From Escherichia phage mellemsur, in the sequence record MN850570.1: 40,770 bases of DNA; one strand, given 5' to 3'. Below, piece by piece: positions 28,196 through 37,291 of the stretch (position 1 is its first letter; every line of letters starts with the position of its first letter). The notes beneath the pieces were generated by a model. It did no database searches and had not been told where the DNA came from. It was given only the letters and a program-made list of their open reading frames with translations. The translations under genes were made by a program, and so were the position numbers.

Positions 28196-28510
28196 CTACT
28201 CCTTAACTTGTTTGCTCAGGTGCTCAATCAGCTTACCGTCTTCGGCGTACTGCTCAACGAGACCTACACCGTATGATGGCTTGCCCGGCTCGTCATATCC
28301 CGGCTGCGCTTGTTTGCGCTGGCCTAAGTCACTCAGTACAGAATGTTGCAGTGCCGGGTCATTCGTACCCGTACCGCCGCAGGCTTCGCAATCCATCAGG
28401 ACTACCTGCCCACCAATCAACATGCCACGGTAGGTGCCGCTACCCATGCAGGCACCACACACTTTATGGTCAACCACCGTGTCGTCAATGGCTCTTTGAT
28501 AACGACTCAT
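28196..28510 (-). CDS. small zinc-finger protein
   Basis: CGACMGSGTY...CEACGGTGT resembles DnaJ-type CxxCxGxG zinc-finger repeats; start moved to internal ATG. Confidence 0.45.
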   Translation of the reverse strand: MSRYQRAIDDTVVDHKVCGACMGSGTYRGMLIGGQVVLMDCEACGGTGTNDPALQHSVLSDLGQRKQAQPGYDEPGKPSYGVGLVEQYAEDGKLIEHLSKQVKE

Positions 28511-28518
28511 ACAATCTC

Positions 28519-28695
28519 CTACGCAAGACAGGCAAACAGAATAGCAGGGATGACAGCCAAGAATACCCACAGGATAAAGCCTGCTGCACCAGACCTGTCA
28601 ACGTGTGTCTTGTTGTACTGGTCGCACGCAGCCAGACAGACAACAGAGAACAGGGCAAACCATACCACAGCTACAATCCAAAGTAAAACACTCAT
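28519..28695 (-). CDS. small membrane protein
   Basis: about 58 aa with two hydrophobic helices; start moved to MSVLLWIV. Confidence 0.4.
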   Translation of the reverse strand: MSVLLWIVAVVWFALFSVVCLAACDQYNKTHVDRSGAAGFILWVFLAVIPAILFACLA

Positions 28696-29270
28696 TTGCG
28701 TTTCCTTAATTCGAGTTCCAGAATGAACAGCGCATTGCACGCAGCGTGCGCCAGATGGTGCAGGTTGGATTCGCTATCCAGTTCCTCACCCTTGCCCACC
28801 GCCGTCAGGTGCCGGAGCAGCGCTGACTTGTAGCGTTCCTCACCTTCCGGTACAGTCTGCCACGAGTGGGCTGCATACTTCTCAGCGCCGAAGGTGAGCA
28901 CGCTGGCTACAGCCTCCAGTGCATTCGGGCAGCCATCGAACAGCAGTGACATGCGGGGCTTGCCGCCGTCAAACTTCATGCCGCCCGGCCCAGCACTCTT
29001 GGCCACGGCCACCTCAACATCACTGGCCGGGTCGTACGGGTCAACCGGGATGAACGCAGTCTCGACTTCTTTCACCTCGAACGGCTCCAGTACCAGCGTG
29101 TGGGTCTTGCCATCCTTCACGCAGGTGTAGTAATCGCGGCTGTCATTCGGCACATCGTACGGTTCGTCGTACGTCAGGATGATACCTTGCTCAGCAATGT
29201 CGCTCAGCAGCGTGCCAGTACCCCAGTTGCGTGTCGGGTCTAAGATAAACTTCTGACCTTTCTTACCCAT
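28692..29270 (-). CDS. putative dATP/dGTP diphosphohydrolase-domain protein
   Basis: C-terminal half KFDGGKPR...VLTFGAEKY...W...LRHL...ELDSESNLHHLAHAACNALF matches my recollection of the dGTP diphosphohydrolase N-terminal domain family; GGAGG Shine-Dalgarno before MGKKGQ start. Confidence 0.45.
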   Translation of the reverse strand: MGKKGQKFILDPTRNWGTGTLLSDIAEQGIILTYDEPYDVPNDSRDYYTCVKDGKTHTLVLEPFEVKEVETAFIPVDPYDPASDVEVAVAKSAGPGGMKFDGGKPRMSLLFDGCPNALEAVASVLTFGAEKYAAHSWQTVPEGEERYKSALLRHLTAVGKGEELDSESNLHHLAHAACNALFILELELRKRK

Positions 29271-29790
29271 TCGCCTTACCTCCATCGACCTTAGAATCAG
29301 CGCCATCGTATTTAGCATTGGCATGAACATACTCATGATTGTCCTCGTACCGGGTCACTTCATAAACCGTGATGCCGAGGCCACGCATGAAGTCAACGAT
29401 GTGCGGCAGGTCGTCGAAAGCACACACGATGTTCTCAATGCCAATGTCCTCCAGCGCCGCCAGCTTCATCTCTGTGTCTTTACGGCAGTCGCCAATCTCT
29501 CTCATGATTAGTTTGTCGTAAACCACACCAGCTTCGTCGAGCCACTGCTCGGTTACTTCACGGGCCACGGCTCCGCGTCCGGTCAGGATGATAATGCGAT
29601 ACGTGAGGGCCAGAGCGTTCACAATATCAATCGTGTCCTGAAACGCAGGGTCGTCAGCGCCAGCCAAGTTGAACTCGGCCCACGCTTCATCAAGGTGCCG
29701 ACGCTCCGGTGGAGGCAGCAGGTGTAAACGCCAACGGCCATCGGCCAGCGTGCCGTCAAGGTCTACTACTACGGTGTCTTTCATGTGCAT
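29263..29790 (-). CDS. HAD-family polynucleotide 3'-phosphatase (T4 Pnk phosphatase-domain-like, no kinase domain)
   Basis: DLDGTLAD (HAD motif I), TGRG, GDCRKD, AFDD collinear with phosphatase domain of T4 polynucleotide kinase; no P-loop. Confidence 0.65.
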   Translation of the reverse strand: MHMKDTVVVDLDGTLADGRWRLHLLPPPERRHLDEAWAEFNLAGADDPAFQDTIDIVNALALTYRIIILTGRGAVAREVTEQWLDEAGVVYDKLIMREIGDCRKDTEMKLAALEDIGIENIVCAFDDLPHIVDFMRGLGITVYEVTRYEDNHEYVHANAKYDGADSKVDGGKANG

Positions 29791-29980
29791 CGTGTGCTTC
29801 CTCAAGAGCGAAAATAATATCTCGGACATATGCCCAAGGCAACCAGACTTCCTCACCGTCCTGCGAAATGCAGACGGTGCCATCCTTATACAGCTCGACC
29901 TGAGTGTTGGCCTCCCACTCAATGGAGAGGCCATCCTCTTTGAGCTGCACCACATCTTCTTGGTACAGTGTTCTCGTCAC
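29756..29980 (-). CDS. hypothetical small protein
   Basis: 74-aa ORF with GTG start overlapping stop of upstream gene; overlaps HAD start. Confidence 0.35.
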   Translation of the reverse strand: MTRTLYQEDVVQLKEDGLSIEWEANTQVELYKDGTVCISQDGEEVWLPWAYVRDIIFALEEAHDAHERHRSSRP

Positions 29981-31104
29981 TCCAACATCTCCGGGCTAAT
30001 GGTGAATCGTGCGACCTCACCGTACCGGGCATGATAAGTAATCACGCTCGCGCTGCGCTCACTCAGCCAGCCACCACGAGAAGCATAGGCATCCTTCGCC
30101 GCCAGCGTGCGGTGCTGCTCGACAATCATGACACCAGACTCTAGCACCTTCTTGTGATGCAGGTGGCCAACGTGTGCATACGCATGTTTGGTTCGGCCAT
30201 ACACTTCGCGGAACTTGGCGACCAGTACAGTCTCCAGTTGTTCTGCCTTACGCTTGTGACCATGGTGGAAGAACAGCGCCGTCTCGCCATGCTCGTAGCA
30301 GTAGTACGGGTCAGGGCTGCGGTCAACAGTGACACGCGGCTCGTCGGCGTACAGTACATGCAGCAGCTCACGCATCCAGATTGAGCTGGCCATGTCGTGG
30401 TTGCCCTCGGCACACACTACGTGAACCTGCGGGAACTTCTCCAGCAGCATACCAATGATGCGGCGCTGCGCCCTGATAGCCACACGTACCAGTTTCTGGA
30501 ATCGCGTGTCAGCATCAAGCACATGCCCACTCGATGGCGTTACTGCATCCAACCCATCCCAGTGCAGGAAGTCACCGAGCTGGCCGAAGATAGCAACCTG
30601 TGCTGGCGGCGCACTGGCAATCGCTGCCGAGAACCACTTGACCAGCAGGTCTTCCGCAATCTTCATATCCCAGTCGTCACCAGTTTCCTCTGCCCACGCC
30701 AGCATACCGAGGTGGTAGTCAGTCAGCACGAACAGGTTCAGCAGCTCAGCAGGTGCCGCGCCCCCGGCGTACGGTCGGGCAGCTTCCGGGGTGATGCTCT
30801 CGCTAATTGCATCGACAGCTTCTTGCAGCAGCGCCAGCTCCTGCTCGCGGTCGAGTGCCGTCTTCACCCACTGCATGACAACGTTGCCGTCCTTATCGTA
30901 CAGCGTGGACGTACCCTTCACCGCATACGGCTCCGGCACTTCCTTCGTCATGTCGTGCTCAGGACTCCAGCCGCTCTTGGCAAGCTGGCGCTTCCGGTAT
31001 CGAATGGCGCTCTCGGTCATGTCATGCTTCTCAGCAATGGCCTTGGTGCCAAGCCCTTCGGCAATGTCTTCTTTGAGTTGGTGATTAGTTAACTTGGTCA
31101 TCAT
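29977..31104 (-). CDS. calcineurin-like metallophosphoesterase with N-terminal HTH-like region
   Basis: Motifs TDYHLG, GDFLH, GNHD, HHGH, GHLHH (binuclear metallophosphoesterase signature); N-terminal about 50 aa helix-turn-helix-like. Confidence 0.7.
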   Translation of the reverse strand: MMTKLTNHQLKEDIAEGLGTKAIAEKHDMTESAIRYRKRQLAKSGWSPEHDMTKEVPEPYAVKGTSTLYDKDGNVVMQWVKTALDREQELALLQEAVDAISESITPEAARPYAGGAAPAELLNLFVLTDYHLGMLAWAEETGDDWDMKIAEDLLVKWFSAAIASAPPAQVAIFGQLGDFLHWDGLDAVTPSSGHVLDADTRFQKLVRVAIRAQRRIIGMLLEKFPQVHVVCAEGNHDMASSIWMRELLHVLYADEPRVTVDRSPDPYYCYEHGETALFFHHGHKRKAEQLETVLVAKFREVYGRTKHAYAHVGHLHHKKVLESGVMIVEQHRTLAAKDAYASRGGWLSERSASVITYHARYGEVARFTISPEMLE

Positions 31105-32571: not shown

Positions 32572-33471
32572 TTACAGACTCGGCAGGCCGAAGTCAGCAT
32601 CGCCAGTCACGTCCGGCTCAGGCTTGGATGCTGCCGACTTGTCAGCCGCGCCAGCCGTTGCCAGCTCCTGCACTTCCTGCTTAACCTCAGCCACTTCCTC
32701 CGGCTGGCCCACGTCGCCCAGCTCAGGCAGCTCAGCGATTGCCGAGCCAGCACCAGCGCCGTTCAGCAGCAGGTCAAGCGGAGAGCCGGGGAACTCAGGA
32801 GATTCCAGCAGCTTGTCCTGAATCCAGTTCTTGGATTTGCCATCGTCGTTCTTGCCTTCGATGTACAGGGATTCCCAGTCCTCTTTGGTCGGACGGTTCC
32901 ACAGGAACAGCTTGAACAGCGTCTCGTCCTCAACCTCCGGCACCGGGTACGGCTGGTCAGTCACCGGGTCAACCGCGAGCATGATGTTCTCAAGGTCGAT
33001 GTTGGCGTACACCTTCTTGTTCTCACCCTCGCCCGATTCGTTGTGGATAATCGGAACAATGAAGGTGTGGTTCAGAAGCTGCGCGAAGTGCTTCGCAGTC
33101 TTGTCCGGGTTCATACGCTTGAACAGTTTGTAAGCGCCGGACTTGCTGTTCAGGTCTTTCTTCACAGCGATGAACTGCGTGCGCACCTTGCCCGGCACCA
33201 TCTTACCATTGACAACTTCATGGTAAGTCTCGCCGTTCTTGGCCTTGCCCCACAGTGCGAACTGGAGGAAGAACTTATTGACAGGCGGTTTGTCCGGTGC
33301 CTGCTTGGTCACGCTCGGCCCCACTTCAATGTAGCCAACCAGTCGCGCCAGTGCCTTACCTTCCGGCAGCAGCTTACCACCACCGGACGTGGCTTCGTTA
33401 AAGTCAAGTTCTTCCTCGTCAACATACTGTTCGACGATGGAGTTCATGCGGTTCAATACAGATGCGGTCAT
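32572..33471 (-). CDS. hypothetical protein with acidic C-terminal tail (possible DNA-replication accessory / ssDNA-binding)
   Basis: 299 aa immediately downstream of DNA polymerase; acidic C-terminus ending ...DADFGLPSL; function speculative. Confidence 0.45.
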   Translation of the reverse strand: MTASVLNRMNSIVEQYVDEEELDFNEATSGGGKLLPEGKALARLVGYIEVGPSVTKQAPDKPPVNKFFLQFALWGKAKNGETYHEVVNGKMVPGKVRTQFIAVKKDLNSKSGAYKLFKRMNPDKTAKHFAQLLNHTFIVPIIHNESGEGENKKVYANIDLENIMLAVDPVTDQPYPVPEVEDETLFKLFLWNRPTKEDWESLYIEGKNDDGKSKNWIQDKLLESPEFPGSPLDLLLNGAGAGSAIAELPELGDVGQPEEVAEVKQEVQELATAGAADKSAASKPEPDVTGDADFGLPSL

Positions 33472-35943: not shown

Positions 35944-36627
35944 CTATGCTGTGCCACCCAAATGGTCTGGCATACGATTGACGTATGCTTCGATGCGCTC
36001 GCGGTGTGTCTCGTGCTTCTCCAGCATGTAGGCCACACGACTCAGGCTGGCATCCGGTCGGCAGACACGGAGAGTCAGCAGGTCGTCGTAGCTTTCAACC
36101 AGACTGGCCAGCGCCGGATACCACTGCACGTCCTCGGCTGTTAGCTTCGGCTCGTACGGGTACGCCATGAACTCACCGGGGTCACGGCTGTACTGCCCGG
36201 AGTATCGCGGGATACTGGACGGGAAGTAGAACTGGTTCAGGTTGAAGTCGAACTCGCTCAGCACCTGTGACCAGCAGCCACATTTACTAATGATGATGTC
36301 AACCGGGCCGAGCTTGAACACACCGTACAGACGGGAACCGAAGTCGCCGCCCTCGGCTGCGTCGTGGTAGCTTGGCATGTACTCATACGGCAGGTTGTGC
36401 TGCTTGGCGTACGCTTCGAGGTTGGTGTCCAACCATTCGAGTCTGCCGACCACACGGCTTACATCCCCACCCCAACCAAAGACCACGATGTCATAGTCCT
36501 TCGGCTCAACACCCAGCGCTGTATCCCTTGCCCCTCCCCCGGCAACCACAAAGTTCAGCTCATGTGATTGCAGCAGACGGCAGATGTCCTCTGCCCATAC
36601 GCGCTTGACTTCTGCATTACTTATCAT
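35944..36627 (-). CDS. Pol-beta-superfamily nucleotidyltransferase, CCA-adding-enzyme/poly(A)-polymerase head-domain-like
   Basis: FVVAGGGARDTALGVEPKDYDIVV matches GG-x-x-RD-x-x-LG...KD-x-D-x-VV signature of class II tRNA nucleotidyltransferases; only 227 aa. Confidence 0.6.
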   Translation of the reverse strand: MISNAEVKRVWAEDICRLLQSHELNFVVAGGGARDTALGVEPKDYDIVVFGWGGDVSRVVGRLEWLDTNLEAYAKQHNLPYEYMPSYHDAAEGGDFGSRLYGVFKLGPVDIIISKCGCWSQVLSEFDFNLNQFYFPSSIPRYSGQYSRDPGEFMAYPYEPKLTAEDVQWYPALASLVESYDDLLTLRVCRPDASLSRVAYMLEKHETHRERIEAYVNRMPDHLGGTA

Positions 36628-36808
36628 GCTTCTGTTTCCCCTTGCGATAAGTGAAGTTCACCACTGCCACCACATCAGCAGGCGGCACATTGAAACGTTC
36701 GGCCAGCGCCTCGGCACCACGGAACGCATCACCCTTCCGGTACTGCGCCCGGATGGTTGCTTGCTCACGTTGGTTTAAGGGTGCCGCTCGATACGTGCGT
36801 TCTTCCAT
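36617..36808 (-). CDS. hypothetical small basic protein
   Basis: 63-aa ORF; overlaps NTase start. Confidence 0.4.
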   Translation of the reverse strand: MEERTYRAAPLNQREQATIRAQYRKGDAFRGAEALAERFNVPPADVVAVVNFTYRKGKQKHDK

Positions 36809-36928: not shown

Positions 36929-37291
36929 TCACCACTTACTCGGCACGCTGCCGGGCAGGTAGCTGGTCGTCGGCTTACGCTCAACGTACTGGTTGTACAC
37001 TGACATGGCATCACACGCTGCTTGGTACAGACGCTCAGCCTCAGCGTAGCTCCAGTCCTCGGCAGTCGCCTCCGGTTCAGGCGTGGCTGCTACATGCGGT
37101 GCGTCACCAATCAGCGCCCACGACGCATGGCGTGCAGTCCACGAGCCACTGATACCAGAACCACGCGCACCATCGTCGCGGTCAATGCTCACGTACTTGT
37201 CGTTGATGTCAACCACAGTACCCTTCGCACCGTAATGCACACTGCGTGCATCAATGTTTACTACTCGGTCGCCTACCTTCAAATGGCTCAT
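36929..37291 (-). CDS. hypothetical protein with KOW/SH3-like N-terminal motif
   Basis: 120 aa; KVGDRVVNIDARSVHYGAKGTVV resembles KOW motif; overlaps helicase stop. Confidence 0.45.
   Translation of the reverse strand: MSHLKVGDRVVNIDARSVHYGAKGTVVDINDKYVSIDRDDGARGSGISGSWTARHASWALIGDAPHVAATPEPEATAEDWSYAEAERLYQAACDAMSVYNQYVERKPTTSYLPGSVPSKW

Follow-up and report, generated by a model that had tools for sequence, protein, structure and literature searches.

Closest described relatives

A family of small podophage proteins has been described as putative tRNA/CCA nucleotidyltransferases (NTases), which occur in 37 of 46 Pectobacterium Autographiviridae and in ~60 of >500 others, with a family tree rooted on LIMEzero (Evseev et al. 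2020, PMC7693777). In a screen of the unknown proteins of Klebsiella phage fHe-Kpn01, one member, the 182-amino-acid (aa) Gp22, was toxic in Escherichia coli upon arabinose induction; its gene lies directly after the DNA polymerase gene, and a likeness to CCA-adding enzymes was noted (Spruit et al. 2020, PMC7291057). These papers, the former discussing the family at the level of annotation and the latter reporting a toxicity screen, were all that our literature search recovered, and no biochemical study of the family was found. Here, we analyzed the member encoded by Escherichia phage mellemsur (sequence record MN850570.1), a 227-aa product read from the minus strand at positions 35944..36627 of the 40,770-nucleotide (nt) stretch of DNA that we refer to as the window. 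We find that this protein is a genuine but divergent class II (PcnB/CCA-type) head domain, and that "head-only class II-type NTase" is its accurate description.

The family is a known one, and nothing about it in this window is new beyond what has been deposited and published. The protein is 100% identical to a "hypothetical protein" of Escherichia phage altidsur, whose DNA is 97% identical to that of the window over the 5 kb tested, and the same gene is labeled "nucleotidyltransferase" in the relative LF82-23. Members of the family are routinely labeled "tRNA nucleotidyltransferase" or even "tRNA maturase" without evidence, and this label over-reaches. The family is widespread, with members in many therapeutic podophages of Klebsiella, Acinetobacter, Pseudomonas, and Vibrio; identification of the true acceptor would give the class II catalytic core a new activity and would shed light on an accessory function that is conserved in T7-like and phiKMV-like replication modules.

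Kinship to class II nucleotidyltransferases

The initial annotation had singled out the peptide FVVAGGGARDTALGVEPKDYDIVV (aa 26 to 49) for its likeness to the head motif of class II NTases. When the single sequence was searched against Pfam, NCBIfam, and (with phmmer) PDB, the matches reached just 24 to 45 residues of motif A and were too weak to decide the matter. PF01743 was matched at an E value of 0.042 and 14.6 bits (Pfam gathering cutoff, 23) over aa 28 to 51 only, and the NCBIfam pcnB and CCA models scored 11 to 18 bits against cutoffs of 305 to 702 (e.g., NF009811, 13.1 bits versus 469; TIGR01942 pcnB, 18 versus 305). A family profile was built from 80 diverse members and used for PDB and hhalign comparisons. 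This profile matched a CCA-adding enzyme (6ibp; E = 2e-9) and PAP I, the poly(A) polymerase I of E. coli (E = 1.6e-8, profile positions 6 to 149), and hhalign comparisons with PcnB and Cca of E. coli returned probabilities of 96% and 86%, respectively. Individually, 35 of the 80 members match PF01743 at E < 0.01, with one of them (P0145) reaching 27 bits. As judged by these comparisons, the family is a divergent outlier of PF01743 and not unrelated to it.

The AlphaFold model of the NTase (predicted local distance difference test score, 89; predicted template modeling score, 0.87) gave a similar picture, since all of the top 25 Foldseek matches were class II enzymes. Superposition of the model on solved enzymes gave values of 9.8 for E. 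coli PAP I, 9.5 for an A-adding enzyme, 8.7 for the Thermotoga maritima CCA-adding enzyme, and 8.1 for the Bacillus stearothermophilus CCA-adding enzyme, each of the four superposing over 135 to 147 residues of the model. The head-domain fold, as predicted, is nearest to those of solved class II enzymes, namely E. coli PAP I and the bacterial CCA- and A-adding enzymes. The profile and structure comparisons that the initial annotation had proposed thus returned a class II fold rather than a different one, and the motif likeness it had reported was borne out.

Motifs retained and lost

Residue conservation was assessed from column counts over the 80 family sequences. G30, G31, R34, D44, D46, D110, and R197 are invariant in 80/80, and D35, G39, P42, F126, D127, N129, N131, and Q132 are nearly invariant. 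Motif A (GGxVRDxLLGxxxxDxD) is present in the query as GGGARDTALGVEPKDYD, aligned to both PcnB and Cca. The core-sheet patterns hG[GS]...[DE]h[DE]h...h[DE]h are found at A29-G30-G31, D44-Y-D46-I, and V109-D110-I111, with strands predicted at these positions, and D110 is the counterpart of the h[DE]h pattern that was reported around aa 114 in Gp22 (PMC7291057).

The remaining motifs are only partly preserved. Alignments pair aFDfNlNqf of the family with RRDFTINSLYY of E. coli PAP I and RRDLTINA of Cca. Because FDFNLNQ is paired with RRDFTIN in this way, both motif B arginines are replaced by x-F: the query reads E-F-D-F-N-L-N where class II enzymes have RRD(F/L)T(I/V)N, and arginine is absent from the three residues that occur most often at position 125. 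The rest of the motif is strongly conserved (F126, 77/80; D127, 79/80; N129, 75/80; N131, 77/80; Q132, 72/80). In the C-terminal stretch, R197 (80 of 80 sequences) is accompanied by R190 (54, plus 16 with Lys), D192 (50, plus 9 with Glu), and K204 (58), and hhalign sets R197 on an arginine of either EDPLRVLR (Cca) or REDPVRMLR (PcnB), in two differing registers. The EDxxR of motif D was not found here; the aligned stretch is RPDASLSR, and no ED dyad is conserved. In all, the protein keeps GGxxRD...DxD, D110, the motif B core D-F-x-h-N, and R197 at motif D, and it has lost both arginines of motif B, the ED base template of motif D, and the entire body and tail half, by which a tRNA is positioned and addition is restricted to C-C-A.

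Nothing in the protein corresponds to body and tail domains, consistent with a length of 227 aa versus 340 to 450 aa, and neither PF12627 nor another RNA-binding domain was detected in a Pfam scan of the NTase. The initial annotation had put its length at about half that of cellular CCA enzymes, which holds for E. coli Cca (412 aa). In comparison, E. coli PcnB (PDB 3aql/3aqm) has 465 aa, a pI of 9.7, a neck, a body, RNA-binding regions (PF12627), RRD, and EDxxR, none of which the phage protein shares. Unlike the class II CCA- and A-adding enzymes (1miv of B. stearothermophilus, 3h37 of T. maritima, 4wby of Aquifex aeolicus, and E. coli Cca), the phage protein has neither RRD nor the EDxxR template, and neither body nor tail, and it is therefore without the hallmarks of CCA specificity and tRNA recognition. 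A stand-alone "CCA-adding enzyme head domain" has been solved for Streptococcus pneumoniae (NP_344798.1; PDB 2la3, 191 aa), but it was absent from the profile search at E ≤ 10.

Family membership and spread

The NTase matched phrog_1614 "nucleotidyltransferase" at E = 1.6e-42. An exhaustive profile search placed the family in 399 clusters at 50% identity, nearly all of 150 to 230 aa, and tblastn located it in 211 sequenced phages, mostly Autographivirales of Pseudomonas, Vibrio, Klebsiella, Escherichia, Proteus, Yersinia, and Pectobacterium. Structural matches in BFVD included LIMEzero, PP2, LKD16, fBenAci002, and other podophage "nucleotidyltransferase / PolyA_pol head" proteins (target-length TM-scores of 0.5 to 0.8). 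The podophage relatives within phrog_1614, among them the NTase of Pantoea phage LIMEzero (40% identity to the query; BFVD TM-scores of 0.73/0.82), fHe-Kpn01 Gp22, Pseudomonas phage phiPsa17 gp22, and Pectobacterium phage PP47 gp28, are alike in length class (150 to 230 aa), in their invariant residues, and in their place among the middle (DNA-metabolism) genes. Gp22 of fHe-Kpn01 is a family member by both BLASTP (E = 3e-13 over aa 1 to 135) and hhalign against the family (99.8%).

Members differ mainly in their C-terminal halves. The Bonnellvirus/LIMEzero clade has a longer, partly clade-specific C-terminal half with the insert FYFPSSIPRYSG at aa 133 to 185, whereas most other phrog_1614 members align over aa 10 to 135 and the R197 helix only. 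Two distant members (P0065 and P0048) also lie in phage-like contigs, and no bacterial operon context was found for them. The PF26128 tag that is precomputed for some homologues had no counterpart in our own Pfam scan.

Fused domains were considered as a hint to function and set aside, since the longer matches proved to be either true multicopy PolyA_pol proteins or proteins without an informative domain. The multicopy example, P0156, is a metagenomic protein of 1,455 aa with four tandem copies of the PolyA_pol head and RNA-binding domains (PF01743, E = 1.8e-63; PF12627, E = 2.8e-29), which is either an unusual fusion or a gene-calling artifact. Likewise set aside was the NTase of Gordonclarkvirinae mentioned in the BASEL paper, which comes from another group of phages. 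The pcnB mentions in the DdmABC paper, to judge from its title, probably concern the host gene.

Proposed activity

We consider it very probable that the phage protein is an active, stand-alone head-only NTase of class II type. It would consist of the PcnB/CCA-type head domain followed by a short helical stub matching the start of the neck, and it would transfer a nucleoside monophosphate from a nucleoside triphosphate to a free 3'-OH. The acceptor is most plausibly the 3' end of an RNA, an assignment that we make tentatively and at somewhat less than even odds. Taken as a whole, the explanation that we favor, a template-independent head-only NTase acting on RNA 3'-OH ends without the CCA "ruler," has a probability of roughly 40%. 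In its behavior, such an enzyme would be nearer to a small enzyme of the poly(A) polymerase kind, or to one that tails tRNA ends, than to a faithful CCA-repair enzyme. The catalytic cores of bacterial poly(A) polymerases and CCA-adding enzymes are reportedly interchangeable, with the C-terminal half setting specificity (a finding attributed to Betat et al. in 2004). Given that the NTase is very acidic and has no domain for holding nucleic acids, it probably needs a partner protein, or else short or exposed ends as its substrate. Its gene, which is an accessory one in many Autographivirales, would be expressed along with the DNA-metabolism (middle) genes, and the activity would harm the host when the protein is expressed alone; toxicity was seen for Gp22. 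Overexpression of pcnB is toxic as well.

Several observations weigh against this reading. Only ~135 to 147 of the 227 residues superpose on class II enzymes, the query-length TM-scores from Foldseek are only 0.31 to 0.44, and the structural matches also include small NTases with non-RNA acceptors, such as ANT(2'')-Ia, and small alarmone synthetases. The query has a pI of 4.9 and a net charge of -12, compared with a pI of 9.7 for PAP I and 6.2 for Cca, and the family as a whole is acidic (172 members of 140 to 260 aa: median pI, 4.84; median net charge, -9.3; 94% below pI 6 and none above 8), which is unexpected because the enzyme would have to hold RNA by itself. The motif B arginines read the ribose 2'-OH and the triphosphate, and their loss leaves the donor nucleotide open. 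Toxicity upon overexpression is unspecific evidence. Lastly, the constant place of the gene among replisome genes fits a replication-linked role equally well.

Alternative acceptors and roles

Since the protein is acidic and lacks a domain that would hold nucleic acids, three alternatives have to be weighed against a template-independent enzyme acting on RNA 3' ends. The first is a replication-linked enzyme that acts at the replisome, where it would, for example, make, extend, or edit short RNA primers or CCA-ended primer RNAs, or would tail DNA ends; we regard this as somewhat unlikely. It draws mainly on the gene neighborhood. Of 73 viral loci, 63 have the NTase gene ≤600 bp upstream of a replisome gene and 7 more have it within 3 kb of one, with at least six differing gene orders represented among the loci. 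The neighbor in these 63 loci is a T7-type primase/helicase gene (52 loci), a phiKMV-type DNA polymerase gene (7 loci), or a T7-type DNA polymerase gene (4 loci). The NTase gene precedes that of the DNA polymerase in Bonnellvirus and ECBP5 but follows it in Drulisvirus, and in Ghunavirus it comes before the gene 4 primase/helicase; in other lineages, it precedes the primase gene or lies between the exonuclease and endonuclease VII genes. In mellemsur, the ATG of the DNA polymerase gene follows the NTase stop codon by just 10 nt. However, most of the 63 loci come from closely related T7-like phages, such that the count is not independent, and adjacency is partly expected in a middle region that consists largely of replication genes. 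For these reasons, the adjacency to replisome genes is suggestive only.

The loss of the motif B arginines, which in class II enzymes contact the ribose 2'-OH, can also be counted in favor of a replication-linked role. In phage T7, tRNA 3'-ACCA ends can reportedly prime DNA synthesis (masked by gp5.5), an observation attributed to Zhu et al. in 2012 and mentioned in PMC3897749. On the other hand, we know of no class II NTase that acts on DNA, and the acidic surface of the protein argues against direct DNA binding. Moreover, the family is accessory, having been reported for a minority of Autographiviridae (PMC7693777), and is hence no core component of the replisome.

The second alternative, which we consider unlikely, is that the acceptor is not a nucleic acid at all. 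The enzyme would instead nucleotidylylate a small molecule of cationic character or a host protein that is basic, or would make a nucleotide-derived product, for example, to disable a host factor or defense. The uniform acidity of the family (median net charge of about -9) fits this proposal, as a comparable acidity is found in ANT(2'')-Ia, whose aminoglycoside ligands are polycationic. The size and two-part build of the phage protein resemble those of ANT(2'')-Ia and MenT1 (Foldseek target-length TM-scores of 0.36 to 0.47), and the protein is an NTase without a nucleic-acid-binding domain. The patchy, accessory spread of the family (PMC7693777) and the toxicity of its Klebsiella phage homologue (PMC7291057) point in the same direction. 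In contrast, the profiles tie the NTase specifically to class II enzymes acting on RNA 3' ends and not to the ANT, MNT, or CD-NTase families. We also know of no candidate for a non-nucleic-acid acceptor. The MenT/AbiEii (DUF1814) toxins are a different family (profile E = 1.3); the phage NTase had no PADLOC match, and no antitoxin partner is evident. Blanket poisoning of tRNAs in the manner of MenT is unlikely because the phage depends on host translation.

A bolder proposal, to which we give only a small chance, is that the acidic head-only class II NTases of podophages are replisome-associated or host-directed effectors with an acceptor that is novel for class II enzymes. These effectors may build or edit CCA-like 3' ends on the RNAs that prime phage DNA synthesis, or they may nucleotidylylate a basic host protein. 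If true, either option would account not only for the constant place upstream of primase/helicase or DNA polymerase genes but also for Gp22 being toxic, and the primer-RNA option would provide a link to the tRNA-ACCA priming of T7.

The third alternative, which the initial annotation had put forward and which we find rather improbable, is a minimal CCA-adding enzyme that rebuilds the 3' CCA ends of host tRNAs damaged by defense nucleases, together with a Pnk-type phosphatase and a metallophosphoesterase. E. coli Cca joins its NTase to an HD phosphohydrolase domain, which provides a precedent for paired activities. The fold and motif A of the phage protein are of the class II tRNA nucleotidyltransferase type, a Pnk-type HAD phosphatase is encoded ~6.7 kb downstream, and the family is named putative tRNA/CCA nucleotidyltransferase in the literature (PMC7693777) and in GenBank records. 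Nevertheless, conservation does not extend to the RRD and EDxxR motifs, by which CTP and ATP are selected, there is no tRNA-binding body or tail domain, the protein is acidic (pI 4.9), and its NCBIfam CCA score is 13 bits against a cutoff of 469. The host has its own efficient Cca, and the phage carries no tRNA genes: none was found by ARAGORN in the window, in agreement with the initial annotation, and no Rfam family was matched there. Furthermore, the homologue was toxic, not protective, when expressed alone (PMC7291057), which is no pointer to repair.

The end-healing toolkit that was attached to this proposal fared no better. Both phosphoesterases do exist in the window: the Pnk-type ORF (open reading frame) holds only a HAD_PNKP phosphatase domain (PF25109, E = 3e-14, aa 60 to 201) with no kinase domain, and the 375-aa ORF that follows it in coordinate order is a divergent SbcD/Mre11-like protein matching phrog_704 "DNA repair exonuclease" (E = 1e-146), with no Pfam match at E ≤ 0.01. 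Their association with the NTase was examined in 74 related viral loci with ≤10 kb of flank, in 71 of which the NTase was found by tblastn. Homologues of the phosphatase and of the metallophosphoesterase each occurred in only 7 of these 71 loci, the 7 representing the Bonnellvirus/LIMEzero clade plus one other, and in the complete genome of phiPsa17, which has the NTase, neither was detected even at E ≤ 1. The association between the NTase and the phosphoesterases is therefore lineage specific. In T4-type healing and sealing (Pnkp plus RNA ligase), a 5'-kinase, a 3'-phosphatase, and an RNA ligase are encoded as a set, whereas only the HAD phosphatase domain is present here; the annotation of the near-identical phage LF82-23 lists no RNA ligase or kinase over the portion of its genome that was retrieved, and no ligase scan was made of the window itself. 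The phosphatase and the metallophosphoesterase sit in a block with a 5'-3' exonuclease and endonuclease VII, and they are more simply read as DNA end-processing enzymes. Of the initial interpretation, the class II fold and kinship stand, but CCA repair and the end-healing kit find no support.

Finally, it is very improbable that the protein is catalytically dead and serves a structural or regulatory role with just the fold preserved: although motifs B and D are degenerate and the single sequence falls below the Pfam threshold, the three metal-binding aspartates, the GG pair, and R34 are invariant in 80/80 and the ratio of nonsynonymous to synonymous substitutions (dN/dS) is 0.12 to 0.14.

Gene coordinates and local context

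The window is from a Bonnellvirus-type coliphage (Autographivirales, Autoscriptoviridae, Stentvirinae). The initial annotation had correctly placed a 227-aa product beside the DNA polymerase gene but had not given its strand, which is minus (Table 1); translation of the plus strand over the same interval is riddled with stops. The dN/dS of the NTase was obtained in comparison with two relatives and indicates purifying selection; the gene is therefore real and constrained. Its start overlaps the preceding 63-aa ORF by 11 nt.

Table 1. The NTase gene, its conserved segments, and other features discussed here, in window coordinates
Feature	Coordinates	Strand	Evidence or remark
NTase coding sequence, head-only class II-like, phrog_1614	35944..36627	-	227-aa ORF, ATG to stop (36627 -> 35944); phrog_1614 match; identity to altidsur protein; dN/dS; AlphaFold model
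Motif A, FVVAGGGARDTALGVEPKDYDIVV, aa 26-49, GGxxRD...PKDxD with first two metal-binding Asp (D44 and D46)	36481..36552	-	Aligns to GGxVRD...DxD of PcnB and Cca
D110 codon (strand V-D-I-I), putative third catalytic carboxylate	36298..36300	-	Invariant in 80/80; model strand 109-114
Motif B remnant FDFNLNQ, aa 126-132, versus RDFTINS of class II	36232..36252	-	hmmsearch and hhalign pairing
C-terminal stretch, aa 186-204, L-x3-R-x-D-x-S-x2-R-x3-M-x2-K, helix 195-207, versus motif D/neck helix	36016..36072	-	Column counts; hhalign
Shine-Dalgarno-like AAGGGG, 10 nt 5' of NTase ATG, within end of 63-aa ORF	36638..36643	-	Read from sequence; putative function
Family A DNA polymerase gene, 821 aa	33468..35933	-	ORF; called DNA polymerase in near-identical phages
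120-aa ORF	36929-37291	-	Between helicase and NTase genes
299-aa ORF	32572-33471	-	phrog_862
375-aa metallophosphoesterase ORF	29977..31104	-	phrog_704
Pnk-type phosphatase ORF	29263..29955	-	PF25109
214-aa ORF	28692-29336	-	PF18909; phrog_19680
124-aa ORF	28196-28570	-	phrog_6060

Several other ORFs were noted along the way. The longest Pnk-like ORF (230 aa) is probably over-extended at its N terminus, as LF82-23 is annotated with a 175-aa product, and it overlaps a 74-aa ORF at 29756-29980. The 214-aa ORF lies between this phosphatase and a Q-like protein, upstream of the RNA polymerase gene. It matches PF18909 "dATP/dGTP diphosphohydrolase, N-terminal" (MazZ type; E = 5.6e-33, aa 119 to 212) and the N-terminal part of phrog_801 "dATP/dGTP pyrophosphohydrolase" in addition to the phrog listed in Table 1, and a MazG catalytic domain was not detectable in it. 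Directly upstream of the gene for the phage RNA polymerase lies the 124-aa ORF, which has a match to "anti-termination protein Q-like" (E = 1.4e-14).

On the other side of the NTase gene, the 120-aa ORF has a subthreshold match to an Xrn1 SH3-like domain (PF18129; E = 6e-5, 23.4 bits versus a cutoff of 26.2), and its C terminus also matches phrog_19629. The 299-aa ORF overlaps the stop codon of the DNA polymerase gene by 4 nt and has no Pfam match. In Klebsiella phage fHe-Kpn01, the homologous gp26 (34% identity, E = 8e-38) carries an annotation as virion associated by liquid chromatography-tandem mass spectrometry, an odd label for a gene of the replication block.

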